Part shown: positions 31,673-61,490 of the stretch, piece by piece | Layout of the letters: every line of letters starts with the position of its first letter | Position numbering within the stretch: the first letter of the stretch is position 1 | Assembly (NCBI GenBank): GCA_964625885.1 | Contig: CAZVBM010000002.1 | Coordinates: forward strand, 7,537-71,536 | DNA length: 64,000 bases | DNA from: an uncultured Candidatus Saccharibacteria bacterium | GTDB taxonomy: Bacteria; Patescibacteriota; Saccharimonadia; Saccharimonadales; Saccharimonadaceae | Reading direction: 5' to 3' | Notes under the pieces: generated by a model | What the model saw: only the letters and a program-made list of their open reading frames with translations | Told to the model about the DNA's origin: nothing | Databases searched by the model: none | Position numbers and translations under genes: made by a program

Positions 31673-31797
31673 TAGCGATACGAAGAAACATTAACTCATT
31701 TTGTCCACGGATGCTTCACCTGAATATTAGTTCAAATTCGTCGTTTTATATCCATGATTACATAATGAATAATTTACCAAGGTTATATAATGGTTCT

Positions 31798-32262
31798 ATG
31801 AACATCCACCAAGTTGAAAAATTCTTCAAAGATAAGAACGACGCGCCTTGCCCATTAACCAAGCGACTTATTAAGGCTGGTTATCAACAGACCAGTGGCG
31901 GATACATAGCCCTGGCAAAGAAGCGCGGTTTGATCGTAGATTACACAAAAGCCAAGCCTACACAATATTGGCACCTTATAGAGGGGTATTGCCCTTCCGT
32001 AGACAAGAATAAGACTTTTAGCAGAAGCATCGTTTGTGGCGAACTAATATTCTGGATGGCCGAGGTGTCGAAAGCCGTATCAAACGACGACTTAGAAGAA
32101 TTGCTTGAGCGAATAATTGCAAGTAGGGATACTGGCACCACTCCGCCAAAACATGATCGCATCAAATGGAATAAAGAGATTCAGAACCTTTGTTTTTGCG
32201 CAATAGAAGCGAAGGTAAAGAACACCGAGAATGTCGCTAACGCGACTTCCGTTCGCTCATGA
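31798..32262 (+). CDS. Hypothetical protein (154 aa from MNIHQ). Possibly leaderless.
   Basis: ORF 31711..32262 in the track. TATAAT at 31786-31791 lies 6 nt before the in-frame ATG at 31798 and there is no SD, so I prefer that start. No recognised family. Confidence 0.5.
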   Translation: MNIHQVEKFFKDKNDAPCPLTKRLIKAGYQQTSGGYIALAKKRGLIVDYTKAKPTQYWHLIEGYCPSVDKNKTFSRSIVCGELIFWMAEVSKAVSNDDLEELLERIIASRDTGTTPPKHDRIKWNKEIQNLCFCAIEAKVKNTENVANATSVRS

Positions 32263-32265
32263 AAA

Positions 32266-32410
32266 ATCCCACCGGGAAGGTTCGTTCGCTTTGCTTCCGA
32301 ACGCTCCGCCCGAACGCCAGATTAGTTTTGCTAACGCAAAACATCTGGGTTCGGTCCTGATGCGAAGCATCAAAAAAGAATACCCCAGCCGTTGGCTGAG
32401 GTATTCTTTT
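32266..32410 (-). repeat. tRNA-Glu-matched trailer unit: terminator-like hairpin, T-arm-derived palindrome and a 13-nt copy of the tRNA 3' part
   Basis: atcccaccgggaa at 32266-32278 repeats 32416-32428 inside the tRNA. ccgaacgccagat (32310-32322) and atctgggttcgg (32343-32354) form a hairpin made of tRNA-Glu T-arm sequence around gttttgctaacgcaaaac. Confidence 0.7.
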
Positions 32411-32485: not shown

Positions 32486-32719
32486 AAAATGGTTAAAACG
32501 TGGCTAATTATAACCGATTAATTCTCAAAACACAAGCGTGGCTAAAACACAAGAATTCTTTCCGTAATCAGCCCATCATTCCGCAAGGTATCTGAGTTGG
32601 GCTTACAACCAACCAGCCGATTTTAGTAGTTGTTACACTGTAATACCAAGATCAGCTTCGTATAACAGTGGTCAAATTGCTTAGCTTATTGTTATTTTGC
32701 ACTTTTTGTTGTAAAACTA

Positions 32720-38957: not shown

Positions 38958-39335
38958 TCCTCCGTCGCTATCCGTTGGATAGCTATGGAGGATTTTTTGT
39001 ACATCTAGGTAGGGCGAGAACCTGACTCGCCAGTTGGCGGGAGGTTCGGCGTAGCGCAGCGAAGCGAAAAAGTGTTTACATTTTTTCGCAAGCAAGCGAA
39101 GGAGCGAGCAAAGCGAGCGATGTCCTGCCGGGTGCACCATTAAAAAATAGCTACATTGTGGCCATTTTTTAATGGTCTATACCCAGACAGATTTGATTCT
39201 GCGGCGCGGCAGATTTAGCTGACGCAAGCCGCAGGTTCGGCGGAGGCGAAATGAGAAAAGAAAGCACTGTAGGTATTTTCTTTTCGAATGAGCCAGAGGA
39301 GGCAAAGCCGATGTCCTGCCACGCACCCATCACCC
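38958..39335 (+). repeat. Two tandem tRNA-Arg-matched units, each ending in a copy of the tRNA 3' part
   Basis: gtcctgccgggtgcacca (38940-38957) is repeated exactly at 39122-39139 and degenerately at 39313-39329. T-stem 5' copies lie at 39038-39049 (diverged) and 39228-39240 (12/13). Confidence 0.85.
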
Positions 39336-46019: not shown

Positions 46020-46339
46020 CAGAAACACCTCGTGTAAACGAGGTGTTAATTTTAGTGAGACATCGCTCACCGCGTTCGCTCCTCCGCTCCGAAAGGGTCG
46101 AAAGCAAGCTTTCGCGTTTCTTTCGTCGCTACGCCGAACTCACGACTTGTTTTGCTAGTGAGACATCGCTCATCCGCCAATTGGCGGATTCACTCCTCCG
46201 CTTGCTTGCGAAAAAATGTAAACACTTTTTCGCTTCACTGCGCTACGCCGAACTCATTTTTGCTACGCAAAAATCTGAGTTCTCGTCTCAGCCAAAATCA
46301 AAATCCTCCATAGCAATTCAAAAGGATTGCGACGGAGGA
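46020..46339 (-). repeat. Two tandem tRNA-Lys-matched units downstream of tRNA-Lys
   Basis: tagtgagacatcgctca occurs twice (46053-46069 and 46156-46172). cgaactcacgac at 46135-46146 equals 46359-46370 inside the tRNA. The 61-nt block at 46193-46253 is the reverse complement of 39044-39104 (59/61). Confidence 0.85.
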
Positions 46340-47315: not shown

Positions 47316-47568
47316 AGACCGCATTTGAGGCTTTAGTCTCAAATAAGGTATGCTCGGCGTAGAAGAGAAGCGAACTCTTCGATAATTTCGCGGTCAGCGA
47401 AATTACATGTTGAGCCCAAGAAAACCAGCAACCTAAAAAATAGTTTTCATGGCGCGAGACTATATTCTCGCCACCCGCACCAAATCGTATTTGAGATTTT
47501 AATCTCAAATGCGAGTTGGCTCAGCATGGAAGAGAAGCGAACTCTTCGTTCTCGCCACCAACATCGTA
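47316..47568 (+). repeat. Two tandem tRNA-Gly-matched units between tRNA-Gly and tRNA-Arg(UCU)
   Basis: attctcgccacccgcacca (47297-47315) is repeated at 47463-47481. A degenerate third copy, ttctcgccacc, lies at 47548-47558. Both units start with an atttgag...ctcaaat hairpin and share gaagagaagcgaactcttcg. Confidence 0.85.
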
Positions 47569-49246: not shown

Positions 49247-51682
49247 TTAATTATTAGCAATATAATCAGCTTCTTTTTGCTTTTCGACGATATTTTTTAC
49301 GTCATCAAGCGTAATAGTAATAGTTGAGCCAGATAAATCAGGCCGCGCAATCATTTCCCGTGCCACAATATTCTCAACCGTTGACTGCACCATACGGCGC
49401 ATCGGTCGCGCCCCCAAGCGTGGATCATAGCCAACATCAACCAGATAGCTCATCGCGTCTTCAGCTACTTCTACAGTAACCTTCTGGGCAGACAAGTTCT
49501 TGTTGACTCCCTTGATAATCAATCCCAGAATCTGCATTAGTTCTAGCTTGTTGAGCGGGCGAAAAACCACAATCTCATCAAAACGGTTGAGAAACTCAGG
49601 GCGAAATTGATTAGACGAAATTAGCTCGTCAACAAACTGCTTCTCGAACTTACTGACCTCATAACCCCGCTCTACATACTCACGAATGCGCTGCGCTCCA
49701 GCATTTGAGGTAGCAATAATAATCGCGTCACGGAAACTAACCTCACGATTGTTCTCGTCACGCAGAACGCCTTCATCAAGTAGCTGCAATAGAGTTGATA
49801 GAACAGCCGGATGGGCTTTTTCAATCTCATCTAGCAAGACGACTGAAAACGGTCGCTGCATCACCTGCGCCGTTAAGCTATGCGGATTATTGGCGCCATC
49901 CTCCAATAGGCGCGATACGTCATTGACCGTCACAAACTCGTTCATATCTAGCCGTATGATACTAGCTTCGCCACCAAAATAAACTGCCGCTAGCGACTTA
50001 GCTAGCTCAGTTTTACCAACACCAGTCGGACCCAAAAACAAGAAAGTGCCAATTGGTTTTCCTTGACTGCGCACACCAGCGCGCGCTCGCCTAAGCGCAT
50101 CACTCACCACACTGACTGCTCGATCTTGATTAATCATGCGTTCGTGAATGAGCTGTTCCAAGTTAAGCAACATCTCGCGCTCTTCTTCGTGATTGACAGC
50201 CCCTATTTTAACGTTCATGGTTTTTTCAATCGCTTCTTGCACCGACTCTACGGTCACCAGGCCATCGCGATTGTATCCAGCAGCCGACTCCATTAGACGA
50301 ATGGCCCGCCCTGGCATGGTTAAGTCGTGAATATAACGCTCGCTCAGACGGTAAGCCTCTTTCATCGCTTGATACATATAAATCACCTGAAAGCGCGGCT
50401 CTAAGTCCACCGCCCGATCTTGCATTGCCACAATTGTTTCAAGCTCATCAGTCGGATGAACAACAATTCGGTTTAGTGTATTGACAAGATTTGGATGTTT
50501 TTTATTAATCTGCAGCAGTTTGTGCTCATTGATAGTTAAGATCACTCGCGCATTACCTGACTCAAAGATCGGCAAAAGTACGTTTGATAAATCTATTGCC
50601 CCCACACCTTCTTCAAAAAAGACATGGGCGTTGTCAAAACAAATAATGATATTCTTGGCGTTATAAGCCTCGGCAAAAATCTGAGTAACAAGTTTTTCTA
50701 ACTCTCCCCGACCAGGCGCACCAGCCACAATCGCACTAGCATCCAGCAGTACAATTTGTCTAAACCTTAGGTTGCTGGGTAAGTCATCATCGACCGACAG
50801 CAACTTTTCCGCCAAGGCATAAACCATCGTCGTCTTACCAACGCCATCTAGGCCAACCAACGCCACGTTTTGTCGAGCGCCACCAGAAAAAATATCAATC
50901 ATTTGCTTGATAGCGCCCTGACGAGAGCCAGCCGTCGTCTGCATAAAACGACGGCCGATAATTTCTTGACTGATATTCTGGCCATATTGATCAATCAGTG
51001 GTGTGTAGCCAAACGACCAATCGCGAGCGATACCACCAGTCCGAAGGCGCACGCCAGTCTGGTCCCTAACACCATGAATATAATCATGCCAACGCACACC
51101 AGCGATTAGGTCATCCAGGCTAAGCTGCAACTTGGCCAAAACTTGCTCATAATTAGGGAAATTCTTGATTAGGGCTAGTGCTAAAGCGCCACCCGACAAG
51201 GTAGCTGAGCCAGTTAATTTACGAATCTCTAAAGCTGCTGACCAGATTGCCGGCATATCGGCCGAATTGGTTGATGACAGTTCGGTTAAAAACCTCGGGC
51301 TAATGCCAAAGCGAACTAGCAAGAACGATCCGCTCGAAGTGTGGGTGAGAATCTCTGCCAACTCACGCGGAGTGGGATTTGATGACAGGCGACCCAAAAC
51401 ACTACTCGACAAGATGTTGTCGACTTGATTATCATCACCAGCAATAGTCCCTAGACGATATAGATGCCAGCGCCACCACTGATAAGTTGCCCACATAACA
51501 ATACCCGGAATCGCAATCAGCCAACCAAAGTAATAACCAAAAACCACAGCCGCTAGACCACTAAGCATAAGTAGCCAACTAAACCACTGCAATACAAAAC
51601 GCCAATTTGGAGTGATGCCGACTGTTGCGCGCGCCTCGCTGGCCCGCAAGCTACGATAATTAAACCTCATTACATCAGCCAT
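49247..51682 (-). CDS. Membrane-anchored double-AAA+ Clp/Hsp100-like ATPase
   Basis: Two TM helices near the N-terminus. Walker A motifs GLDGVGKTT (D1) and GPTGVGKTE (D2). ClpB/ClpC-like D2 small domain (GARPMRR). Start at MADVMRF (51682) or MRF (51670, overlapping the upstream stop as TAATG). The track start at 51748 is less likely. Confidence 0.8.
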   Translation of the reverse strand: MADVMRFNYRSLRASEARATVGITPNWRFVLQWFSWLLMLSGLAAVVFGYYFGWLIAIPGIVMWATYQWWRWHLYRLGTIAGDDNQVDNILSSSVLGRLSSNPTPRELAEILTHTSSGSFLLVRFGISPRFLTELSSTNSADMPAIWSAALEIRKLTGSATLSGGALALALIKNFPNYEQVLAKLQLSLDDLIAGVRWHDYIHGVRDQTGVRLRTGGIARDWSFGYTPLIDQYGQNISQEIIGRRFMQTTAGSRQGAIKQMIDIFSGGARQNVALVGLDGVGKTTMVYALAEKLLSVDDDLPSNLRFRQIVLLDASAIVAGAPGRGELEKLVTQIFAEAYNAKNIIICFDNAHVFFEEGVGAIDLSNVLLPIFESGNARVILTINEHKLLQINKKHPNLVNTLNRIVVHPTDELETIVAMQDRAVDLEPRFQVIYMYQAMKEAYRLSERYIHDLTMPGRAIRLMESAAGYNRDGLVTVESVQEAIEKTMNVKIGAVNHEEEREMLLNLEQLIHERMINQDRAVSVVSDALRRARAGVRSQGKPIGTFLFLGPTGVGKTELAKSLAAVYFGGEASIIRLDMNEFVTVNDVSRLLEDGANNPHSLTAQVMQRPFSVVLLDEIEKAHPAVLSTLLQLLDEGVLRDENNREVSFRDAIIIATSNAGAQRIREYVERGYEVSKFEKQFVDELISSNQFRPEFLNRFDEIVVFRPLNKLELMQILGLIIKGVNKNLSAQKVTVEVAEDAMSYLVDVGYDPRLGARPMRRMVQSTVENIVAREMIARPDLSGSTITITLDDVKNIVEKQKEADYIANN

Positions 51683-52059
51683 GACGGCGCCACCTCCAAA
51701 ACGAACAAAATAACGCAAACTGCCGGCAAAAACGGCACAAATAGCCACAGAATCATCGCTACCAGGCTATAAACCAGCCGAGCTAACAAAGCTAACAAGC
51801 CAACTAAAAGCACCCCAAAGCGTATCATCGCGCCAATCAAACGCGAGATTAATCGATCAAACCAGTTGCGCACTTTGTCTTCCAGCGCGCCCTTTTCTAG
51901 TTTTTGCGAATCAATCATGCGAAACGGCTGAAAGAAAGTCTTAATCAATAAATCAATTGAGAAAAAATCCGATGTTTTAATTATCTTATCGGTCAAACGC
52001 TCAAAACGATTTTTTAGGCCGGCTCCATACCACCATTTGAAAAAACTAGCCAAAAGCAT
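51670..52059 (-). CDS. Small hypothetical membrane protein, translationally coupled to the Clp-like gene
   Basis: 129 aa with C-terminal TM helices. Its stop overlaps the downstream start. Confidence 0.6.
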   Translation of the reverse strand: MLLASFFKWWYGAGLKNRFERLTDKIIKTSDFFSIDLLIKTFFQPFRMIDSQKLEKGALEDKVRNWFDRLISRLIGAMIRFGVLLVGLLALLARLVYSLVAMILWLFVPFLPAVCVILFVLEVAPSWLM

Positions 52060-52107
52060 AAGCTAATTATACATCAAACAAGCGTCGCGCTAAAACTAAG
52101 TTTGCGA

Positions 52108-52192
52108 TATAATATGAGCACCTGAGAGAAAAGCGAAACTTGTTTTAGCTTTTCCGAAGGTGAGAAATATTACACGGAGTATAATCAACGTT
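52108..52192 (+). promoter_or_regulatory. Conserved promoter/hairpin module upstream of murT (copy 1 of 2)
   Basis: Order of elements: TATAAT (52108-13), a hairpin cacct...GAAAAGC..GCTTTTC...aggtg (52119-52162), then TATAAT (52180-85), then the ATG 7 nt later. About 85% identical to 55037-55121. Confidence 0.65.
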
Positions 52193-53446
52193 ATGCATTT
52201 TAAACGCTGGCTCTCAATTAAAATCGGCAAGTTCCTGTTACGAGTGGGGCGGATCTACGGTGGCGGCTCAGCTCTGCCCGGTCTGATGATGGAAAAGATT
52301 TATCCAAATTTTGTTCAAGACTCCCTAGGTAACCTACCACTGGGAGTAGCAATCATATCTGGCACCAATGGTAAGACTTCAACCACCAAGGTTGTCAGTC
52401 AAATCTTAACCGAACAAGGGGTGTCAGTTTTTACTAATCCGTCCGGCAGCAATTTCTCACGCGGAGTAGCTTCAGCCTTACTCAAACAGTGCGATAGTCG
52501 TGGTCAAATAAAAGCGCAAATTGCTGTGCTAGAGCTAGATGAAGCTCACGCTGTCCATTTTATTAAGCAAGTTAAGCCAACATATAGCCTACTTCTAAAT
52601 ATCCTGCGCGACCAACTAGACCGCTTCGGCGAGATTGATAAGGTTACAGAGCTATTGAAACAAATTGCCGAGGCCACTACTAAAACCGTGGTAATTAATC
52701 GCGAAGACGCCCGCCTTAGGTCCATCGCTGTTAAACTACCAAACGCCAGCTACTACGGCTATAGCGACAAGGTGGGTGAGCAGCTGCAAAACCTTGACGA
52801 CCCACTAACCGCCGCCGAACTACCGCCAGCTGATGTTGAGCTAGTCTACCATGGCGCCGACAATGCCAATGTTTATCGCATCGGCCACGATAAAATCAGC
52901 ACCAAACCTAAAATGAGCGGACTTTATAATCACTTTAATATTGCTGGTGCCATTGCCCTAGTTCGCGTCATACTGGGCGACAAGCTTGACCTTGACCGGC
53001 TAGTTAATAGCCTAAAGAATCTGGAACCGGCGTTTGGACGAGGCGAAAAATTCCTAATCGGCGGACAAACCACAGAACTAATTTTAGTTAAGAATCCATC
53101 CGGTTTTCAGATGTCAATCAATGCGCTAGCCGACCCCAACGCCGCCATCATGATGGCCGTCAACGATAATTATGCCGACGGTCGTGACACTTCATGGTTA
53201 TGGGATGTTGATTTTACTAACCTGCCACAAAAGACCGTTAATGTCACGTCAGGCAGTCGCTGTTTCGACATGACCAACCGACTAAAATACGATCTAAAAA
53301 AAGTTAAAATTAGTCAGCCAGATTTAAAAATCGCGACCGCTGAACTTTTAACTATTAATCAGCCGCGCCAAATCTTTACTACCTACACCGCCATGATGCA
53401 GATTCGTAAATTTCTACTGGAAGCCGTTAAAGGAGAAAAACCATGA
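52193..53446 (+). CDS. murT: Lipid II isoglutaminyl synthase subunit MurT (Mur-ligase family)
   Basis: ISGTNGKTSTTK P-loop about 55 aa from the MHFKRW start, a Mur ligase middle domain and a DUF1727-like C-terminus. The track ORF starts at 52160. The internal ATG at 52193 gives the expected spacing from the N-terminus to the P-loop (inference). Confidence 0.85.
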   Translation: MHFKRWLSIKIGKFLLRVGRIYGGGSALPGLMMEKIYPNFVQDSLGNLPLGVAIISGTNGKTSTTKVVSQILTEQGVSVFTNPSGSNFSRGVASALLKQCDSRGQIKAQIAVLELDEAHAVHFIKQVKPTYSLLLNILRDQLDRFGEIDKVTELLKQIAEATTKTVVINREDARLRSIAVKLPNASYYGYSDKVGEQLQNLDDPLTAAELPPADVELVYHGADNANVYRIGHDKISTKPKMSGLYNHFNIAGAIALVRVILGDKLDLDRLVNSLKNLEPAFGRGEKFLIGGQTTELILVKNPSGFQMSINALADPNAAIMMAVNDNYADGRDTSWLWDVDFTNLPQKTVNVTSGSRCFDMTNRLKYDLKKVKISQPDLKIATAELLTINQPRQIFTTYTAMMQIRKFLLEAVKGEKP

Positions 53447-54168
53447 GCCAAGAACTGACCATACTACAACTTTATCCAGATGAACTAAACATCTACGGCG
53501 ATGGTGGCAATTTATTGGCCTTAAAGCGCCGACTAGAGTGGCGCGACATCACCGTCAATATCACGCACCACCAAATCGGTGATAATCCCAGCCAATACAA
53601 CCCAGACATTGTTATTGCTGGTGGCGGGCAAGACTCTAACCAAATTAAGATTGCCAGCGATCTAGAGCGGCTACGCGAACAACTGGCTGGCTGGATAGAG
53701 AGCGGCGTGCCATGCCTGATGATCTGCGGAGCTTATCAGATTTTAGGCAAACCTTATCAAAACAACGACGGTGTCACTATACCTGGGTTAAAAATAATTG
53801 ATATTGAAACGAGGGCTGGCAAAGAACGTATCGTCGGTAACCTGGTAATTGATAGCGACGATTTTGGCCGCATTGTTGGTTACGAGAACCACTCCGGACA
53901 AACCTACCTAGGCGCCGAACTCAAACCATTAGGTAGGGCTATAAAAGGCGGCGGTAACAACGGCCAAGACGGTACGGAAGGCTTACAATACAAGAATCTA
54001 ATCGGCACCTATTGCCATGGACCAATCCTGCCGAAAAACCCCAGAGTAGCAGATTTCCTGATTACCCAAGCTTTAAAACGAAAATACGGCGAAAATGTCC
54101 AATTATCGCCACTCGATGATACCGTTGAGCTAGCGGCCCAAAGCCAATCAGCCGATAGGCCACGCTAA
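53443..54168 (+). CDS. gatD: Glutamine amidotransferase GatD (CobB/CobQ-like), partner of MurT
   Basis: Overlaps the murT stop. Nucleophile context MICGAYQILG and the CHGP histidine motif. 241 aa. Confidence 0.85.
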   Translation: MSQELTILQLYPDELNIYGDGGNLLALKRRLEWRDITVNITHHQIGDNPSQYNPDIVIAGGGQDSNQIKIASDLERLREQLAGWIESGVPCLMICGAYQILGKPYQNNDGVTIPGLKIIDIETRAGKERIVGNLVIDSDDFGRIVGYENHSGQTYLGAELKPLGRAIKGGGNNGQDGTEGLQYKNLIGTYCHGPILPKNPRVADFLITQALKRKYGENVQLSPLDDTVELAAQSQSADRPR

Positions 54169-54174
54169 ATAAAA

Positions 54175-54200
54175 CAGACCGCCTATATAGGCGGTCTGTT
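54175..54200. terminator. Bidirectional terminator hairpin
   Basis: cagaccgcc-tatata-ggcggtctg between convergent genes. Confidence 0.65.
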
Positions 54201-54220
54201 CAAATTGTTTAACTTAAAAA

Positions 54221-54646
54221 CTATTTCTTATCTAGCTTATTGCTAATTTCGCCCAAGTAGCGGTAGATCTTGATAATGATCATCGCAAACTGGAAGGTGA
54301 TCCATAGCGCAATATTACCAACAACCAAGGTTAATAGGAACGCTAAGAAGCTAGCACTAATTAACTCGAAAGAGATTAAAGTGGTGAACAAAGCCATGGC
54401 TAGGTAGACTAATTTAAGAATCGCTTCAACCCGTAGACGCTTGAAGTTAACGAAGTCGTGTAACTTGACCGCAAAACCCTTAAACTTGTCACGTGACTGA
54501 CGAGCAAAGAAGAAATAGATTACTAAAGCACCAACAATCGCCAGAACCAGAGCGATAATACCCCAGATCGACAGCGCCGACAACAAGACCGGGCTTGAAG
54601 TGGTGACACGAGTGGTTGGATAATCTAAACCATAACTACTATACAT
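54221..54646 (-). CDS. Hypothetical polytopic membrane protein (141 aa)
   Basis: ORF with 3-4 hydrophobic helices and SD AAGGAAG. Confidence 0.6.
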   Translation of the reverse strand: MYSSYGLDYPTTRVTTSSPVLLSALSIWGIIALVLAIVGALVIYFFFARQSRDKFKGFAVKLHDFVNFKRLRVEAILKLVYLAMALFTTLISFELISASFLAFLLTLVVGNIALWITFQFAMIIIKIYRYLGEISNKLDKK

Positions 54647-54758
54647 ATCTTCCTTTCATTAAATTATTTTAATCATATGTTAATCTAATAATTTTTGCAA
54701 CTGGCAAAGCTCACAGCCTTGATTTTATTAGCAAAATCTACTATACTTTGTACCTAAT

Positions 54759-54835
54759 CGGGGCGTGGCGCAGCTTGGTAGCGCGCGCGGTTTGGGACCG
54801 TGAGGTCGCAAGTTCAAATCTTGTCGCCCCGACCA
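54759..54835 (+). tRNA. tRNA-Pro (anticodon UGG), CCA encoded
   Basis: Hand-folded: acceptor CGGGGCG/CGCCCCG, anticodon loop TTTGGGA, T-arm GCAAG-TTCAAAT-CTTGT. Confidence 0.9.
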
Positions 54836-55030
54836 AATAAAATTAGTCACCTTCATGGTGGCTGATTTTATTTGACCACGGAATGGTGAGTTGAACTTGC
54901 GACGTTTTGCGCCAGCAAAACAAGTCGCAAGTCGTGAAGTGAGTGAAGCGAGTGAAAAGCAGGCCGAAGGCTTGTTTTTCCGAGCGAACGAGCGGAAGAG
55001 CGAGTAATACGAGCGATAATCTTGTCCCAA
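54836..55030 (+). repeat. tRNA-Pro(UGG)-matched trailer unit
   Basis: Elements in order: a terminator-like hairpin at 54836-54876; ttgaacttgcgac (54891-54903), the inverse of the tRNA T-arm 5' side; the inner hairpin gttttgcgccagcaaaac; a direct copy gtcgcaagt (54924-32); a central hairpin GAAAAGC..G.TTTTTC (54954-80); and a 3' copy aatcttgtc (55018-26). Confidence 0.8.
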
Positions 55031-55036
55031 ATATTG

Positions 55037-55121
55037 TATAATTAGAGCATCTGAGCGAAAAGCGAAACCTTGTTTCAGCTTTTCCGAAGATGTGAATAAT
55101 TACACGTAGTATAATCAAGCT
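55037..55121 (+). promoter_or_regulatory. Conserved promoter/hairpin module upstream of the deacetylase gene (copy 2 of 2)
   Basis: Order of elements: TATAAT (55037-42), a hairpin catct...GAAAAGC..GCTTTTC...agatg (55048-55092), then TATAAT (55110-15), then the GTG 6 nt later. Confidence 0.65.
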
Positions 55122-56567
55122 GTGAGAAAGAAATTAGAACTCTTTAAACAAAGATTAGGCAGGCTAGTCAAAAACGACAAGACTCCCTACTTATTTATCC
55201 TTCTCAGTGGCGTGATTTTTCTAGCCCTGGCTTATATCTTTCAAGAAAATGGCATCGGTCTAACTAGTAGACAAGCCTACTTAAAAAACTCCGCCTATAA
55301 CGGCGTCAGCAGCAACTTTGTAACCGAACAAAAATGGCACCTTAAATCACAACGCGAATATCCAATTACTTCAAACAATGATGTCAACCAAAAACTGGCT
55401 CAAAAAATTAATAATTTCCATCAGGAGTATTTGAATCGTCTTAAAAACAAAACTCACAAATTGAGCTACGAAGAAAACACTAGCTTTAGCGTCACCTACA
55501 ATCGCAACCAACTGCTATCAATATCAATTAATTCCGTACAAGATTCAGACAATAAGACCGTCACTATGTTGACTGATTCGGAAACCTTTGACCTAACCAC
55601 CGGAAAGCCAATCGGCCTAGCCGACATATTTATCAACACTGATTGCTTACACTCCAGAGCTCTACCAGATCTACGCCAGCTGGTTGTCAAGGAAATTCAG
55701 CAAGCGAAGCCAGATTTTGATTCTAATAAGTTAAGCCAGACACTAACGGTAGAATTAGCTAATAATTTTCTAGTTCATCAAGATGGTAGTTTTCAATTTG
55801 AGTTTACGCCAGAAAAGCTTGGCGCCGATTTCAATGGCAGAATAGTCGTAAACTTGCCGGCAACCCGCTACTTATCAAGCATAAAACCAGATCTAGCCAA
55901 GAGGTTATTTGACCAAGCGGTCATCGACCTCAACTCACCCGAGAGTCCGCAAAACCGATCGGGATTTTGCAGCAAGAACCCATGCGTCGCCCTGACTTTC
56001 GACGACGGACCGAGCGACCAAACTCCCCAAATTCTAGATATTCTGCAAAAATACAATGTCAAAGCTACTTTCTTTGTTTTGGGTAAAAAAGCTCACGATC
56101 ACCCTGACATTATTAAGCGACAAATTGATGAGGGACATCAAGTAGGCTATCACGGCTGGAACCACACCGCCTTTAACCGATTGAGGCCTGAGCAAATCCA
56201 TGACGAACTCAATCGCACCGACGAGATTTTTCGAGCTAATAATTACATCTCAAGAGTAGCTCGACCACCTTATGGAACATTAAATCAAAAATCCATTGAT
56301 GTTTTACGCGATCGCAATCAAGATATTATCCTATGGTCGGTTGACCCGCGCGACTGGGATGTCAAGGACGCCGAGCAAATCTACAACCGCGTCATAACCG
56401 CCAGCCACAACGGCGCCATTATTTTACTCCACGATATTTACCCCAGCACCGCTGATGCAGTCGAGCCAATTATTAATTATTTTCAAAACAACGGCTTTTA
56501 CTTAGTAACCGCCAATACACTACTTGGCGACGTGCCACCATCTGGCAGTATTTATCGCCGACGCTAG
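55122..56567 (+). CDS. Membrane-anchored polysaccharide/peptidoglycan deacetylase (NodB domain) with an N-terminal DUF3298/RsiV-like region
   Basis: TM helix (YLFILLSGVIFLALAYIF). NodB motifs TFDDGP, HGWNH and LLHD. Only a GTG start is available. Confidence 0.82.
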   Translation: MRKKLELFKQRLGRLVKNDKTPYLFILLSGVIFLALAYIFQENGIGLTSRQAYLKNSAYNGVSSNFVTEQKWHLKSQREYPITSNNDVNQKLAQKINNFHQEYLNRLKNKTHKLSYEENTSFSVTYNRNQLLSISINSVQDSDNKTVTMLTDSETFDLTTGKPIGLADIFINTDCLHSRALPDLRQLVVKEIQQAKPDFDSNKLSQTLTVELANNFLVHQDGSFQFEFTPEKLGADFNGRIVVNLPATRYLSSIKPDLAKRLFDQAVIDLNSPESPQNRSGFCSKNPCVALTFDDGPSDQTPQILDILQKYNVKATFFVLGKKAHDHPDIIKRQIDEGHQVGYHGWNHTAFNRLRPEQIHDELNRTDEIFRANNYISRVARPPYGTLNQKSIDVLRDRNQDIILWSVDPRDWDVKDAEQIYNRVITASHNGAIILLHDIYPSTADAVEPIINYFQNNGFYLVTANTLLGDVPPSGSIYRRR

Positions 56568-56589
56568 TTCTATGATAAAATTAGAAAAT

Positions 56590-56665
56590 CGGGATGTGGC
56601 GCAGTTGGTAGCGCGCACGGCTGGGGGCCGTGAGGTCGCCTGTTCAAGTCAGGTCATCCCGACCA
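56590..56665 (+). tRNA. tRNA-Pro (anticodon GGG), CCA encoded
   Basis: Hand-folded: acceptor CGGGATG/CATCCCG, anticodon loop CTGGGGG, T-arm GCCTG-TTCAAGT-CAGGT. Confidence 0.88.
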
Positions 56666-56747
56666 TCCTCCTTCGCTGTCTTCTGGACAGCTACGGAGGA
56701 TGCAGTCCGTAGCCTTTGGCGAAGGAGTGCATTTTATCAACACGCAT

Positions 56748-56824
56748 CGGGGCGTGGCGCAGCTTGGTAGCGCGCACCGTTCGGGACGGTGAGGTCGCCT
56801 GTTCAAATCAGGTCGCCCCGACCA
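56748..56824 (+). tRNA. tRNA-Pro (anticodon CGG), CCA encoded
   Basis: Hand-folded: acceptor CGGGGCG/CGCCCCG, anticodon loop TTCGGGA, T-arm GCCTG-TTCAAAT-CAGGT. Confidence 0.9.
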
Positions 56825-57282
56825 TAAAAATTGACTCACCTTTTGGTGGGTCAATTTTTATCTGTTGCGCGCAACATGTTTGACTGGCGACCTTTTGCGT
56901 AGCAAAAATTGGTCGCCTGTCGTGGAGTGAACGAAGCGAAGAAAAGCGCGTAGCATTTTTCTGAGCGAGTGAACGGAGGAGCGAAACGAAGTGGAGCGAT
57001 AATCAGGCCTGATACTATCGTAATATTGGTGGCTGATTTTATTTGGCCACGGAGTGGTGAGTTGAACAGGCGTGCCTGTTCGCGAATGAACTCAGCCTAC
57101 ATACGATCATGTGACCGGTTTAATAATTACTTTGAAGGGAATCTCGCAGTTACGACGGAGAGCTTAGCGCAGACGGCCCTGTAACGACAGGCGCCGTCAA
57201 GTGTCCCTGAAAAGTAATTATTAAATATCAGGTCGTATTAGAAATAGACAAGCAGGGTGGACGAAGCCCATAATCAGGCCCT
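56825..57282 (+). repeat. Three tandem tRNA-Pro(CGG)-matched units. The middle one carries the type-2 structured insert.
   Basis: Partial T-loop/T-stem 3' copies lie at 57001-57009 (aatcaggcc), 57225-57235 (atatcaggtcg) and 57270-57281 (ataatcaggccc). T-stem 5' copies are ggtcgcctgt (56911-20) and gcctgttcg (57074-82). Confidence 0.8.
57117..57235 (+). ncRNA. Candidate structured element (type-2 insert), copy 1. Strand and RNA status unproven.
   Basis: A 21-bp closing helix (ttaataattactttgaaggga / tccctgaaaagtaattattaa, with 2 mismatches) encloses a core that is about 85% identical to 61247-61310. Confidence 0.5.
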
Positions 57283-58756
57283 AAAACAACTTCTCACCGT
57301 AAATTTCATTTTCTAACTCATCATGATCATGACACCAAACCTGCGCAATAAACTGACTTTTCTTAGCTAATTTATCATTGTTCCACGGTGGCAAGAAACA
57401 TTCCGGACACCAATGCCCAGTTTTTAAGACTAAATACGGACTGGCCTCAAATTCGTGACCTTCGGAACAAACCCATTTCAATTTAGTTTGCAAATCGCCC
57501 TTTTTCATTTTATTAGACAAACAGTCGCCACCACGAAACTGAGCGGCTCGCTTCATATCAGCCAAATCTAACTGGTCTAACGGTTTTGTTTCATCATAAC
57601 CATGGTCTAATTTTGAATGCGCTTCATCGTGCACTAAACTAAAACCATCCCAGCCACCAGGAATCGCCTGCCATTTTTCAACCGAGCCAAAGAAAGCCTT
57701 AAATTTAGCCACTTCACCATGTTTTAGCCAATAGAGTGGCGCATTGGGCCGGTTGGCACGCGGTAACATAAAGAATCGCTTTACCAAACTAGCTGGGATA
57801 TATTTCAGTAATTTTAATTTGAGCGGTAGATCTCGTTTAATCTCTGCCAAAACATCATCAACCGTTTCGGTTCGAAAGTCTAAATAATTATTTAAATCAT
57901 CGGAATCCAAATACCACATGCCATGAAAATTACGCAGCGCATACCAATTTGGCTGTTCTAATGATTTAAGATCCACCCCTAACATACGATAAAACTTGTC
58001 TAAAAATTCAAAGGCCGTCAAGCGATTGGCCGCGCCACCACCAATATTATAGACTCGGCTCCAGAATCCACTAGGTAGCTCTTTGGTGCAGAGATTGTAT
58101 AGCAGCCGACCAGAATCACGCGCCGTAATCCACTCCAAGCTATTGTTGAGTGGCTGATGATAACTAATACCATCGTCCACCGCAAAAATATCTTTGTGTA
58201 TAATGCCCGTCTGACGGAGCGACACCCACTGCTTTATACCAGATTCAATCACATAACGTTCAGCTGCCACTTTGGAAATGGAATAATAGTCAAAAGCACT
58301 CGGTAGTAGTGGATCGCCGACTCGCCCCCAGTGGACTGGAATTGGCCGATTGCCATACTGACCAATACTACCAATGTAAACAAATTTAGTTGTTTCACCC
58401 TGCCCAAGTTCTATCACCGCATCGACTAAGTTTTTTGTGCCACCAAAATTAATTCGCCAGGCTAGTTTTGGACGCGTATCGGCCATCGGCGAGACCAACG
58501 CCGCAATATGCAAAACAATATCTATCCCAGATACAGCCTTTTTAACATCGTCATAATTGGTTAAATCACCCCAAACAATTTTAATATCTAGATTATCTTG
58601 ATAGGGCGCCAAGACCTTCTTGTCTGACTCACTTGGCAAAGAGAATATTACCAAATCAAATTGGTCAGTCTTTTCAGCCAATTGACGCAAAGCCTCACGC
58701 CCCATATTGCCAGTCGCGCCGGTTAAAAGAACCTTGGTTTTTTTAGCTTGACTCAT
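57281..58756 (-). CDS. NAD-dependent epimerase/dehydratase (extended SDR) with a C-terminal Cys-rich, zinc-ribbon-like domain
   Basis: Rossmann motif LLTGATGNMG and catalytic YSISK (YxxxK). C-terminal WVCSEGHEFE...GHWCPEC. Confidence 0.75.
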   Translation of the reverse strand: MSQAKKTKVLLTGATGNMGREALRQLAEKTDQFDLVIFSLPSESDKKVLAPYQDNLDIKIVWGDLTNYDDVKKAVSGIDIVLHIAALVSPMADTRPKLAWRINFGGTKNLVDAVIELGQGETTKFVYIGSIGQYGNRPIPVHWGRVGDPLLPSAFDYYSISKVAAERYVIESGIKQWVSLRQTGIIHKDIFAVDDGISYHQPLNNSLEWITARDSGRLLYNLCTKELPSGFWSRVYNIGGGAANRLTAFEFLDKFYRMLGVDLKSLEQPNWYALRNFHGMWYLDSDDLNNYLDFRTETVDDVLAEIKRDLPLKLKLLKYIPASLVKRFFMLPRANRPNAPLYWLKHGEVAKFKAFFGSVEKWQAIPGGWDGFSLVHDEAHSKLDHGYDETKPLDQLDLADMKRAAQFRGGDCLSNKMKKGDLQTKLKWVCSEGHEFEASPYLVLKTGHWCPECFLPPWNNDKLAKKSQFIAQVWCHDHDELENEIYGEKLF

Positions 58757-58831
58757 TACACTTAATTGTACATCAAAATTTTAACCCAAAGAAAAATCGG
58801 GCTTAACGCCCGATTTGGAGAAATAATTTGC

Positions 58832-59110
58832 TTAAATGGCAAGTTCTAAATCCGAAATGTACGCACCAATTTCGGCAGACTGCTTTTCAAGACTTTCTAG
58901 CTCACTCTCGACGTTGTCGGTAGAGCGACCATCATTCTGCAACTCGGCAAGCAACTCGCACTGCTTGACGTACCTGTTGTGGACGCACTCCAGTGCCTCA
59001 TTAGCTTCCCTTAGTTTGCGATCCCTAAACTCGACAGCCTCATGGTCCAAGCCACGAGAGAGGTAATCGGCTATCATGGTTAACGCTCTTGTGTCTATAT
59101 CATATTTCAT
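58832..59110 (-). CDS. Small hypothetical helical protein (92 aa)
   Basis: SD GGAGGG, its own TATAAT and its own terminator (58793-58818). Heptad-like charged sequence. Confidence 0.55.
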   Translation of the reverse strand: MKYDIDTRALTMIADYLSRGLDHEAVEFRDRKLREANEALECVHNRYVKQCELLAELQNDGRSTDNVESELESLEKQSAEIGAYISDLELAI

Positions 59111-59205
59111 AACATAGCCCTCCTTTTTGTACTAGCACCCTTACGAGCGCCTCATCCTACAATTATAGCATAAAAATGTATAAATATCAAATAAAAGCCG
59201 GGTTT

Positions 59206-59448
59206 TTACCCGGCATTGAGCATTTCGCCAAAAGTTTCTAGCTCGGCAATAAAATGAGAAATAGTTTCAATTTTAGCCTCAATACTCTTACGATCTTTTG
59301 CTGAAGCGGTTTCATATTGTTCGTCTAGTTTTTTTAACTCAGCTCGACTCTCGCCAAGGACCCGATTCATCAAATCTCGTGCCTTGTCCCGCTCATCCAA
59401 AAGAAACAGTTTGTTTAGTTCGATCCTAACGTCATCACGATACAGCAA
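59206..59448 (-). CDS. Small hypothetical helical protein (80 aa, TTG start). Possible paralogue of the 58832 ORF.
   Basis: SD GGAGGGA before the TTG. It shares the leader motif ggtgctagtaYaa with the neighbouring small gene. Its own terminator (aaagccgggtttttacccggc) overlaps the 3' end. Confidence 0.5.
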   Translation of the reverse strand: MLYRDDVRIELNKLFLLDERDKARDLMNRVLGESRAELKKLDEQYETASAKDRKSIEAKIETISHFIAELETFGEMLNAG

Positions 59449-59533
59449 TCAAACTCCCTCCTTCGCTTATACTAGCACCAAAAAGCGCCACAACCATCAT
59501 ACAGTCATAGCGCTTTTATATCAAGCAGGCTAT

Positions 59534-61045
59534 TTATTTGGCGTATTCTTCGGCGCGAGTTTCGCGCACGACATTAACCTTAATCACACCCGGATATTGC
59601 ATAGTGCTTTCGATTTTTATAGCAATATCGCGCGCCAATTTAATAGCTGACAAATCATCGACTTTTTCCGGTTTAACAATCACACGTAGCTCGCGACCGG
59701 CTGAGATCGCATAAGACTTCTCAACACCAGGAAAGGCGTTGGCAACATTTTCCAAGTCGCGCATGCGCTCCACAAAGTTTTCACTTGAAATGTTGCGTGC
59801 GCCTGGCCGAGCGGCTGAAACCGCATCAACTACACGTACCACCAGAGCTTCTGTTGTAGTAGCTTCGATATCCTCGTGGTGCGCTTCCATGGCGTGCGCT
59901 ATCTCTTTTGACATGCCATATTTACGAGCTAATTCAGCGCCAATTACATGGTGCTTGCCTTCAATCTTATGCGTCACCGCCTTGCCAATATCGTGGAATA
60001 GGGCGGCTGTCTTGGTGATTTTGACATCAGCACCAATTTCCTCAGCAATTTGCCCGGCTAATTGGGCCATTTCAATTGAGTGCTTCAAAACGTTTTGGCC
60101 ATAAGACGTACGATATTTTAATTCACCGAGCAGGTGCAGCATCTCGCGCGGCATGCCAATCAATCCAACCTCACGCGCTGCGTCTTCACCAGCCCTCACA
60201 ATTTCTTTATCAATTTCTTTTTCAGCTTTAACAACTACTTCTTCAATGCGAGAGGGGTTAATGCGCCCATCTTTCATCAAGAGCTCAAGCGCTAGACGAG
60301 CTACTTGGCGACGCACTGGATCAAACGAGCTCAACACTACCATGCCAGGGGTTTCGTCGATTAAAATGTCAACACCGGTGGCGCGTTGCAAGGTCTGGAT
60401 GTTTCGCCCCTCCTTACCAATAATTCGCCCTTTCATTTCATCATCCGGCAACTCTACTGACGTTACTGTGTGTTCAGAAGTGACTTCTGAGCTCATGCGC
60501 TCCATAGCGCCTAATAAAATCATCTGAGCACTCTCTTCGGCCGCCTCAGTCGCTTCGTTCTTTAATTTACTAATCAAACCAGTCAAGTCGTCTTTGACGT
60601 TCTTTTCAGTCATGTCAAGCAGCTTTTGACGTGCCTCGTCCTTAGTCAATTTAGCAATTTTCTCCAATTTTTCTTCTTGCTTTTGGCGAATATCTAAAAC
60701 CGCATTCTTTAGATCTTCCAACTCTTGTGTCTGTTGGCGCAAAGAATCCATCTTTTCATCGGCCTGCTCGTTCTTTTTATCAAGTAGAGCCTCACGCTCA
60801 GTTAGGCGACTTTCGACGCGGTCCAGTTCTTTGCGACGACTAGCCTCATCACGCTTAGCCTGTTCTAAAACCTTATCGGCGTTACTTTGAGCTTCTTTGG
60901 CTAATTTGCGCGCCTTATCTTCGGCTTCTTTTACTAAATCGTCAGCCTTTTGCTGGTGTTTTTTCGCCTTGGTCGTCAAGACACCATAAGCCGCGCCACC
61001 ACCAATAGCTAGGCCAGCTAGCGAGGCAATCACTATTTCTATCAT
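59534..61045 (-). CDS. rny: Ribonuclease Y
   Basis: N-terminal TM, long coiled coil, KH domain (IGKEGRNIQ) and HD domain (LFHDIGKA). Confidence 0.95.
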   Translation of the reverse strand: MIEIVIASLAGLAIGGGAAYGVLTTKAKKHQQKADDLVKEAEDKARKLAKEAQSNADKVLEQAKRDEASRRKELDRVESRLTEREALLDKKNEQADEKMDSLRQQTQELEDLKNAVLDIRQKQEEKLEKIAKLTKDEARQKLLDMTEKNVKDDLTGLISKLKNEATEAAEESAQMILLGAMERMSSEVTSEHTVTSVELPDDEMKGRIIGKEGRNIQTLQRATGVDILIDETPGMVVLSSFDPVRRQVARLALELLMKDGRINPSRIEEVVVKAEKEIDKEIVRAGEDAAREVGLIGMPREMLHLLGELKYRTSYGQNVLKHSIEMAQLAGQIAEEIGADVKITKTAALFHDIGKAVTHKIEGKHHVIGAELARKYGMSKEIAHAMEAHHEDIEATTTEALVVRVVDAVSAARPGARNISSENFVERMRDLENVANAFPGVEKSYAISAGRELRVIVKPEKVDDLSAIKLARDIAIKIESTMQYPGVIKVNVVRETRAEEYAK

Positions 61046-61220
61046 AAAACCCTTTCATCTGGGCGATCGTTTTCATCGCCTGTAAAAATATTCTTAAATC
61101 CGCGTCTTCGTCAAAAAATGGTCACTAAACGCTAATTAGATTGTAGCACAAAGCCATTTAGCGCGCGACTAATTATTAAAACCGACAACTAGTTTGCGTC
61201 ATTGTCCTTTATTCCGTACG

Positions 61221-61335
61221 GCCAGTTCAACAACTCACCAGCAGACAATCTCGCAGTTACGACGAGAGTTTAGCGCGAGCAGCCCTGTGACGACAGGCGC
61301 TGCCGACGCGTGTCTGATGGGGAGTTGTTGAACAT
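61221..61335 (+). ncRNA. Candidate structured element (type-2 insert), copy 2, embedded in an orphan tRNA-Pro-like T-arm. Strand unproven.
   Basis: ggccagttcaa | insert | catcaggcc. The closing helix gttcaacaactcaccagcagac / gtctgatggggagttgttgaac is unrelated in sequence to that of copy 1, while the core is conserved. Confidence 0.5.
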
Positions 61336-61490
61336 CAGGCCGTGGGTTAGCCTGGATTGGGGCTTTCAACCGACCAGCTCTCCAGAGACGTTTGACCACG
61401 CCCGTCGTTACGGGGTGGTCTGCACTTCGCTGTCGGTCGTAACCGCCAGAGCCTCTGTCGAGCTGGTTGGTTTACGCCCACTAGGTGACA

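Follow-up and report, generated by a model that had tools for sequence, protein, structure and literature searches.

Transfer RNA genes are classic landing sites for mobile DNA, and the known players at these sites are kilobase-sized and bear an integrase. The reduced genome of the episymbiont considered here presents a different picture: modules of 150–225 nucleotides (nt) stand behind tRNA genes that remain intact, carry the T-arm of the tRNA copied in both directions and broken at T-loop position 58, and turn over faster than the surrounding genes. The DNA analysed, called the window throughout, is a stretch of 64,000 nt from an uncultured Candidatus Saccharibacteria bacterium (GenBank assembly GCA_964625885.1, contig CAZVBM010000002.1, positions 7,537 to 71,536); it is 46% G+C and holds nine tRNA genes, each with an encoded CCA. 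At its centre of interest, positions 56825–57282, sense and antisense copies of the T-arm and 3′ end of tRNA-Pro(CGG) follow that gene and are split at the T-loop by family inserts. Full-text literature searches gave no description of T-loop-split, tRNA-matched repeats, and the modules look like a previously undescribed, lineage-specific family of tRNA-targeted repeats or mobile elements. We tentatively favour the reading, held with somewhat less than even confidence, that they are non-autonomous integrative or mobile elements that are directed to the T-loop, moved in trans and reshuffled by recombination.

The closest established pattern is serial integration at a tRNA gene, in which each arrival pushes older elements outward and leaves partial tRNAs behind, as in the tycheposons of Prochlorococcus (10.1101/2020.12.28.424599). 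With P4-like islands and tycheposons (10.1101/2020.12.28.424599) the modules share an intact tRNA, direct partial copies of its 3′ end, the outward push, the decay of remnants and a breakpoint in the T-loop; they differ in their size of 150–225 nt, in having neither integrase nor cargo, in a distal T-arm that is split by an insert, and in an inverted copy of the 5′ side of the T-arm (T5′) in each unit. Two hallmarks of tRNA islands are seen, namely direct tRNA 3′ repeats beside an intact tRNA and presence/absence polymorphism at the same tRNA, and two are not: the modules contain no open reading frame (ORF) and no integrase, and no uninterrupted att core, all 18 units with the commonest insert (type A, below) being split.

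Several other systems overlap with the modules in part. Repetitive extragenic palindromes and their mosaics (REP/BIME), REPINs and miniature inverted-repeat transposable elements (MITEs) are likewise short, non-coding and hairpin-rich, mosaics of motif types, placed after genes, terminator-like and presumably moved in trans, and the short, inverted-repeat-bearing, multicopy character typical of MITEs and REP/BIME is present here as well (at least 25 modules in three genomes). They part company in that type A stands behind tRNAs only, the modules carry tRNA-matched segments, and no clear target-site duplication, RAYT or transposase was identified in the sequence analysed, which covered about 100 kb of each genome. 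Integron attC sites and phage CTX-phi at dif resemble the modules in tandem accretion at a regenerated site, in inverted repeats that refold the target duplex and in AAC...GTT at the hairpin base; here, however, it is the T-loop of a tRNA that is targeted, neither IntI nor attI nor an Xer context was found (the window proteins scanned include no intI), the module hairpin bases GTTGAAC...GTTCG match the attC pattern RYYYAAC...GTTRRRY only in part, and a single-stranded intermediate is purely hypothetical. IS110 bridge RNAs share the alternation of constant structured parts with short target-matching segments, sense and antisense, yet the modules duplicate 18–19 nt of their target, which IS110 does not, adjoin no gene for a DEDD recombinase and have no Rfam match. 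The folded sites of attC/CTX-phi and the bridge RNAs of IS110 serve us as functional analogies only. Finally, the non-canonical T-loop tRNA introns of Thermoproteales and the intervening sequences of rRNA helices also place an insert in a conserved RNA hairpin loop, at 56–59, exchangeable between loci; unlike these, the module T-arms lack the 5′ two-thirds of a tRNA, lie in a bacterial host and show no bulge-helix-bulge motif.

The array behind tRNA-Pro(CGG) is composed as follows; L004 is a related genome.

56748 to 56824, plus strand: tRNA-Pro(CGG), intact, CCA encoded, the anchor of the array (ARAGORN; 58.5 bits with the Rfam tRNA model; identical to L004 at 77 of 77 positions)
56824 to 56876, plus strand: leader of unit 1 (leader 1), a terminator-like hairpin starting from the last base of CCA (arms 56824–56840 and 56845–56861), then the small palindrome tgttgcgcgcaaca (inverted-repeat and palindrome scans)
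56879 to 56920, plus strand: three-part hairpin of unit 1, with an inverted copy of the variable-loop/T5′-stem/T-loop-5′ segment (tttgactggcgacc, 56879–56892), the palindrome H1 (ttttgcgtagcaaaa, 56893–56907) and a direct T5′ copy, ggtcgcctgt (56911–56920)
56921 to 57000, plus strand: type-A insert of unit 1, purine-rich, with a central AGAAAA..TTTTTCT hairpin between an A-run and a T-run (nhmmer)
57001 to 57027, plus strand: copy of the 3′ side of the T-arm (T3′) of unit 1, aatcaggcc (57001–57009), then a decayed remainder corresponding to an older 3′ end of the tRNA, since displaced, and to the left arm of terminator 2
57028 to 57082, plus strand: leader of unit 2 (leader 2), with the right arm of terminator 2, ccacggagtggtgag, an inverted T5′/loop copy (57062–57072) and a direct copy, gcctgttcg (57074–57082)
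57083 to 57238, plus strand: nested type-B segment, with a long hairpin at 57107–57238, core aatctcgcagttacgacg..gccctgtaacgacaggcgc, and the 3′ flank atcaggtcg (57227–57235)
57249 to 57280, plus strand: "unit 3", comprising ~23 nt from the 3′ end of a type-A insert (caagcagggtggacgaagcccat) and the T3′ copy aatcaggcc (57272–57280)

The strings quoted in a first-pass annotation of this DNA, made from the sequence alone, were all recovered at or within 1–2 nt of where it had placed them. For a test against chance, exact matches of at least 8 nt shared by the final 34 nt of tRNA-Pro(CGG) and the 458-nt region downstream were summed, a measure adopted in place of a short-probe match matrix that was too noisy. 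The sum is 54 nt, against a mean of 2.25 and a maximum of 26 in 300 shuffles, none of which reached the observed value. The sense segments are ggtcgcctgt, gcctgttc and atcaggtcg, and the antisense segments ggcgacct and ttgaacaggcg, the latter (57062–57072) being the exact reverse complement of the T5′ stem and loop. In a 9 × 9 cross matrix every tRNA tail of the window matches its own downstream region only, with the exception of the Pro tRNA pair, which shares a T5′ stem; together with the shuffles, this rules out chance similarity.

Misassembly, which the first-pass annotation had named as a possible source of the pattern, is ruled out too. A contig in ENA matches 51122–60567 without gaps at 99.86% identity, Logan contigs from at least four other runs span 54937–57166 and 57141–58981, and at least five independent assemblies agree, with identities of at least 99.9% at the array. 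Logan contigs of different runs break at common points (54937, 56639, 57141 and 57166, in type-A, shared Pro T-arm and type-B sequence), and because these breaks recur at identical positions they suggest that more near-identical copies lie elsewhere in the genome. Extension of the window genome added only 2.7 kb, in which there is no further tRNA. A whole-window Rfam run at the gathering threshold listed seven tRNAs and missed the tRNA-Pro genes at 56590–56665 and 56748–56824, which score 61.8 and 58.5 bits when 54700–57400 is searched alone; their omission is a filter artefact of the large search, and the genes are sound.

Unit 1 had been described as having a standard layout of trailer hairpin, palindrome, T5′ copy, insert hairpin and aatcaggcc, all of which were located, and its type-A insert occupies the exact place of T-loop position 58. 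H1 has 4 matches where 0.31 would be expected. Leader 1 also stands behind tRNA-Pro(UGG) and tRNA-Pro(CGG) in L004, and the block from CCA to the T5′ copy is identical at 98 of 101 positions between the window and L004, whose genes are only 72–82% identical to those of the window. The intact counterpart of the decayed remainder of unit 1 is found in a further relative, L082, as ..caggtcgccccgaccaaataaaattagtcaccttta.

The remainder of the array had been counted as two more units, but it is better counted as one. Leader 2 (56 of 58 positions identical between the window and L004) is orthologous to that of unit 2 in L004 and L082, both of which carry a type-A insert where the window has the type-B segment, and "unit 3" aligns best with the final 27 nt of those type-A inserts (21 of 27). 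For these reasons units 2 and 3 are, judged from the alignments, a single old unit, its insert interrupted by a segment bearing type B, and "unit 3" is the tail of the original insert. The array comprises three arrivals in two units. The larger, different structured insert that had been seen at the T-loop position of unit 2 is accordingly the long type-B hairpin, with 22-nt arms at 57119–57140 and 57204–57225 and a folding z-score of −6.4, and its apparent T3′ copy, atcaggtcg, goes with type B: ATCAGGYCGT also follows the type-B copies at 61213–61345 of the window and 10328–10459 of L004. The reported likeness of the start of unit 2 to the tRNA-Pro(UGG) locus holds (91% to 54856–54901), although the leader begins at 57028 and not at 57011. 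As had been noted, the last unit ends at the neighbouring stop codon, the TAG at 57281–57283 of a 491-aa minus-strand ORF that abuts it. A fall in preservation with distance from the tRNA was not borne out, all three T3′ copies keeping 9–10 nt.

Six of the nine tRNAs of the window bear modules (Glu, Arg-UCG, Lys-CUU, Gly, Pro-UGG and Pro-CGG). The remaining members are listed here, with one type-B element away from any tRNA.

54836 to 55026, plus strand: module behind tRNA-Pro(UGG), with an intact leader 2, inverted T5′ copy, H1, direct T5′ copy, type-A insert and aatcttgtc
38958 to 39320, plus strand: two modules behind tRNA-Arg(UCG), the first ending in a perfect 18-nt tRNA 3′ end, gtcctgccgggtgcacca
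46062 to 46339, minus strand: two modules behind tRNA-Lys(CUU)
47317 to 47559, plus strand: two modules behind tRNA-Gly(UCC) with differing insert types, the first ending in a perfect 19-nt tRNA 3′ end
32266 to 32410, minus strand: one module behind tRNA-Glu(UUC), reaching to 3 nt from the stop codon of a convergent ORF
61213 to 61345, plus strand: second type-B element, with no adjoining tRNA, flanked by the T-arm-like halves ggccaGTTCAA ... ATCAGGCCg

A common layout runs through these modules, which are non-coding, about 150–225 nt in size and filled with hairpins throughout. Directly after CCA comes a terminator-like hairpin of one of a few types, whose palindrome often takes in the CCA; then an inverted copy of the variable-loop/T5′-stem/T-loop-5′ segment; usually the conserved palindrome H1, ttttgcgNNgcaaaa; a direct copy of the same segment, ending in ..GTTCG or ..GT; a family insert, which may be type A, type B or of a further kind; and lastly a stretch copied from the tRNA, beginning at T-loop position 58/59 and in the best cases running through CCA. 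The inverted and direct copies are ~13 nt long and the T3′ copy corresponds to the last 18–19 nt of the tRNA, perfect over 18–19 nt behind Arg(UCG) and Gly and 9–13 nt long elsewhere; every T3′ copy that reaches CCA is followed by a terminator or its remains. The constant parts recur behind different tRNAs while the matched parts are retargeted: leader 1, for example, is found at both Pro(UGG) and Pro(CGG), and the inserts of the first Arg(UCG) and Lys(CUU) modules are nearly identical. The sequence of the inverted/direct hairpin follows that of the tRNA with pairing kept, 6 of 11 pairs being changed on both sides, and the first Arg(UCG) module folds as a predicted three-way junction (z-score −3.7).

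The breakpoints all lie around A58, since sense T5′ copies end at T-loop positions 55–57, inverted copies at 57–59, and T3′ copies begin at 58–59; expressed as tail index, sense T5′ copies end at 12–15 and T3′ copies start at 15–16, equivalent to T-loop positions 57–59 at all six loci. The whole T-arm is present in a single module, unit A behind Gly, and its loop is scrambled. These boundaries raise the idea of retro-copying, in which a mature tRNA would serve as primer, template or both, a modified A58 would halt reverse transcription, inverted copies would arise by snap-back and the cDNA would recombine into the locus. The T3′ copies are indeed the 18–19 nt 3′ of position 58, the stretch that could be copied before 1-methyladenosine 58 (m1A58), the modules begin exactly after CCA, and the inverted copies adjoin hairpins. 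Yet CCA is genome-encoded and hence non-diagnostic, no reverse transcriptase turned up in the 50 window proteins that were scanned, the lineage is not known to have m1A58, and DNA recombination directed to the T-loop predicts equal boundaries, which makes retro-copying very improbable indeed.

Type-A inserts are 65–85 nt long and purine-rich, with a hairpin between an A-run and a T-run. An nhmmer profile found 18 copies in three genomes, all of them flanked by the two T-arm halves (T5′ and T3′) of the tRNA that they stand behind and none located elsewhere, with ..GTTCG or ..GT as left flank and GAT|GTC.. or GAT|AATC.. as right flank in 18 of 18 and always in the orientation of the tRNA. Type B is a 130-nt hairpin (z-scores −6 to −8) whose core is conserved and whose outer stem covaries between the copies at 57107–57238 and 61213–61345. 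A third long-hairpin type, type C, occurs in L004 and the related genome L074 in either orientation relative to the tRNA. Type A is thus found at tRNAs only and type B also at a non-tRNA site, and the junctions show at most CG or CGA microhomology. A hammerhead-like core suspected in type A on inspection by eye was rejected, since it departs from CUGANGA and is missing from other copies. Rfam covariance models hit tRNAs only, the best other match, to Ms_AS-8, reaching 25.8 bits where the gathering score is 48. A blastn search in distant mode of phage and plasmid sequences gave no similarity to the modules, IMG/VR yielded no match (one pattern scan was empty, and the other gave a chance match in a coding region, L071), and a metagenome scan with GatD returned one short contig only, 43% identical and without tRNAs.

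Each module-bearing tRNA is also the start of an imperfect palindrome of 90–100 nt that runs from the T5′ stem to the inverted copy and is centred on the terminator loop; no such palindrome is seen at the module-free tRNAs of the window or at outgroup tRNAs. The inverted copy thereby mirrors the 3′ half of the tRNA about the terminator loop as fold-back copying predicts, and one may ask whether any dedicated machinery is needed: template switching at T-arm and terminator palindromes, followed by unequal recombination, conversion and transformation-borne exchange anchored on the tRNA, could build such arrays. A perfect tandem duplication does exist, at tRNA-Lys(UUU) of L074 (19387–19814), where a whole module of 186 nt is repeated 2.3 times with 98% matches and two of the units are identical, and the window encodes ComEC and type IV pilin-like proteins. 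Exchange between lineages also occurs in this group, since the identity of L074 and L082 is mosaic, about 96% over most of the locus and 83–87% across the tsaD/tsaE/comEC segment and beyond. Against this, local sequence is not the source of H1 or of types A, B and C, and yet these stand behind unrelated tRNAs sharing only ~6 nt of T-loop homology, too short a stretch for conversion driven by RecA; the breakpoint is identical in 18 of 18 inserts; and the tRNAs for His and Arg(UCU), with similar terminators, carry no modules. We therefore regard an origin by template switching as quite unlikely.

The comparison with relatives adds direct evidence of turnover. The closest public genome is a Candidatus Nanosyncoccaceae (Saccharibacteria/TM7) metagenome-assembled genome, GCA_050950465.1, which is syntenic with the window, its polysaccharide deacetylase being 77% identical as protein and the shared genes 72–82% as DNA. 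Modules are present in three related Nanosyncoccaceae genomes. Among the module-bearing lineages are the window genome, GCA_050950465.1 and the ERZ2647956 bin, and GCA_025563055.1 is a module-free relative. In four distant relatives, L068, L069, L070 and L073, the corresponding tRNAs are followed by plain terminators without modules and represent empty sites; deacetylase identities to the window among the distant relatives are 64, 53, 43 and 38%. In L070 the gap between Pro(GGG) and Pro(CGG) is 7 nt and only a plain terminator follows tRNA-Pro(CGG), and in L073 the gap between Gly and Arg(UCU) is 17 nt. Units 1 and 2 at Pro(CGG) are common to the window and L004/L074. Compared with L004, the window has the two type-A alleles exchanged: each stands at the Pro locus, UGG or CGG, where L004 has the other.

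The most telling pair is L004 and L082, which are ~96% identical (flanking genes 95–97%), yet between which at least four whole modules have been gained, lost or replaced. At tRNA-Pro(CGG) of L082 the leader-2 module follows CCA directly, with both arms of its terminator intact and without unit 1; in the window and L004 the 207-nt unit 1 separates CCA from the right arm of that terminator. L082 also lacks an 86-nt module that L004 has between Pro(GGG) and Pro(CGG), has one more unit than L004 at Pro(UGG), and at Lys(UUU) carries another insert type in a different copy number. In L085, ~80% identical to the other module genomes, tRNA-Pro(CGG) is followed by a native-type terminator, a leader-2-like hairpin and a type B that ends at the epimerase stop codon, again with no unit 1.

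The first-pass annotation had proposed serial build-up at the tRNA 3′ side with the newest unit next to the tRNA, and had called for comparison between strains. That comparison upholds the tRNA-proximal part of the proposal: the outgroup L070 has the plain terminator, L082 and L085 have no unit 1, and since the unit-2 module of L082 sits directly on the tRNA, accretion at the proximal end is supported and unit 1 is the most recent addition. The array is therefore accreted DNA with its newest unit innermost, but arrays also change by internal insertion of units, tandem duplication and the swapping of inserts between loci, so that accretion is not purely serial.

Under the reading that we favour, of non-autonomous modules directed to the T-loop, a module would enter by recombination with a breakpoint fixed in the T-loop or, equivalently, at the CCA end; it would supply the tRNA with a fresh 3′ end and terminator, and the former 3′ end and terminator would be displaced downstream, there to decay. 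The enzyme would work in trans, encoded away from the array. The inverted copy may pair with the split sense copies to give a duplex image of the T-arm from which the insert branches at the breakpoint, in the model a plausible folded recognition site. Unequal homologous recombination, conversion between paralogous modules, exchange across lineages and the nesting of hairpin elements such as type B would then rework the arrays. What is directly observed is how the modules are built, that each is specific to its tRNA, that the breakpoints are fixed, that presence and absence vary between genomes and that the newest unit is proximal; site-specific integration, an enzyme acting in trans and a folded recognition site are what these observations suggest. 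Small non-autonomous modules fit because the breakpoint is fixed, the tRNA stays intact, old 3′ ends are tailed by terminators, matched parts are retargeted and whole modules are polymorphic.

A number of points weigh against this reading. To our knowledge the modules, which are free of cargo, are far below the size of any known integrative element. Classical insertion by a tyrosine integrase leaves an unsplit distal T-arm, and here it is always split by the insert. Pfam assigned the 50 window proteins to housekeeping or unknown functions, with no integrase, transposase, reverse transcriptase or other recombinase among them, four ORFs near the Lys(UUU) array of L074 belong to no Pfam family, and no circular or excised form of a module was seen. 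Two Lys(UUU) arrays end distally at T5′-TTCG followed by unique flank, with no displaced 3′ end, an outcome that simple integration at the T-loop would not give; in L074 the last element is a T5′ hairpin of the inverted/direct kind whose sequence breaks off at ..gagttcg. In the Pro(UGG) array of L004 the best-preserved 3′ end is at rank 2 rather than rank 1. Lastly, the leader blocks of genomes with genes 72–82% identical agree at 97%, which could reflect purifying selection on function and not mobility.

This conservation is the mainstay of another explanation, namely that the modules are selected RNA or DNA elements, such as processed 3′-trailer small RNAs or stacked bidirectional terminators that insulate tRNAs from convergent genes, and that the arrays grew by ordinary duplication. 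Between the window and L004/L074 identity is 97% for leader blocks, 73% for inserts, 74% for T3′ remnants and ~75% for ordinary spacers, and the body of Gly unit A is 94% identical between the genomes; leader conservation may, however, reflect function, recognition constraints or exchange between lineages alike. Each module has two hairpins, each between an A-run and a T-run, the orientation is constant and the same as that of the tRNA, the arrays occupy the spacer as far as the stop codon of convergent genes, and type B is 90% conserved at the orthologous non-tRNA site. Nevertheless, unit number and insert type vary between ~96% identical genomes, relatives manage without modules, inserts and T3′ remnants diverge near-neutrally at 73–76%, there is no Rfam match, and a terminator directly after CCA should halt most transcription into the module. 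Nor do the palindromes show a clear strand bias, with 27 G.U against 17 A.C mismatches, counts so unconvincing that strand-specific selection on RNA was dropped. We consider selected function unlikely on balance, if worth serious attention. Were the modules functional, the Candidate Phyla Radiation would have in them a novel class of structured elements linked to tRNAs.

If the modules are mobile, they would be a minimal tRNA-targeting element, and the alternation of constant with target-matched parts would hint at programmable insertion sites. A stronger form of this idea, which we regard as a long shot, is that the modules are self-addressed, their three tRNA-matched segments rebuilding the interrupted target T-arm as folded single-stranded DNA or as an RNA guide that steers a host or trans-acting enzyme. 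Such a system, conceptually akin to bridge RNAs and to the folded sites of attC/CTX-phi yet distinct from all of them, would be a retargetable means of insertion into tRNA T-loops that needs no protein in cis. Mobile or functional, the modules account for recurrent assembly breaks beside tRNAs in these genomes and mark hotspots of gene gain and loss, among them that of the 491-aa epimerase.

The segment concerned, 57281–59500, holds this epimerase-family gene and two small ORFs in the window, recurs in L085 with one small ORF, and is absent from L004 and L082, where nothing but a 74-aa ORF separates the array from rny. The 2.2-kb difference in gene content falls exactly at the distal edge of the array. 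The epimerase gene was examined as possible cargo and set aside, there being no second tRNA fragment on its far side. A segment of this kind, and the classical signature of direct partial tRNA 3′ ends behind an intact tRNA, would be expected if the modules were remnants of full-size integrative elements (prophages, integrative and conjugative elements or tycheposon-like elements) that integrated serially in the T-loop and lost their interiors. However, the short architecture repeats about 25 times with identical internal junctions, which independent deletions would not be expected to produce; no integrase fragments and no likeness to phage, plasmid or IMG/VR sequences were found, and the missing tRNA fragment beyond the epimerase gene counts against it as well. 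A remnant origin is therefore improbable.

Some smaller observations concern the spacers. The T3′ copy of the Glu module lies 3 nt from the stop of a convergent 183-aa ORF (31711–32262), the final codons of which overlap a sequence resembling the 3′ half of type A (gagcgaacggaag); arrays seem to fill spacers fully and may contribute to gene ends. The 82-nt spacer between Pro(GGG) and Pro(CGG), 56666–56747, consists of a tcctcc...ggagga terminator and a short type-A-like piece (cgtagc..gcgaaggagtgc), and measures 101 nt in L004, 15 nt in L082 and 7 nt in L070; it represents a module that stands immediately behind CCA and lacks copies of the T-arm.

Three repeat pieces lie at 61213–61490 (10328–10500 in L004), in the 445-nt spacer that separates the tsaD-like gene from rny: the full type-B hairpin at 61213–61345, an inverted, partial type-B-like piece at 61376–61459, and a repeat of the gggcttTcaaccGaccagc type that is also found at 32570–32623, upstream of tRNA-Glu. 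The type-B copy is conserved in L004 and not in the same spacer of L085, which is 130 nt long and has none of the three pieces. In L082, finally, tRNA-Pro(CGG) (8080–8156) has the T-loop TTCAAGT, as in the adjacent tRNA-Pro(GGG), where the other genomes have TTCAAAT, a change that may stem from a short conversion between the two neighbouring tRNA genes.

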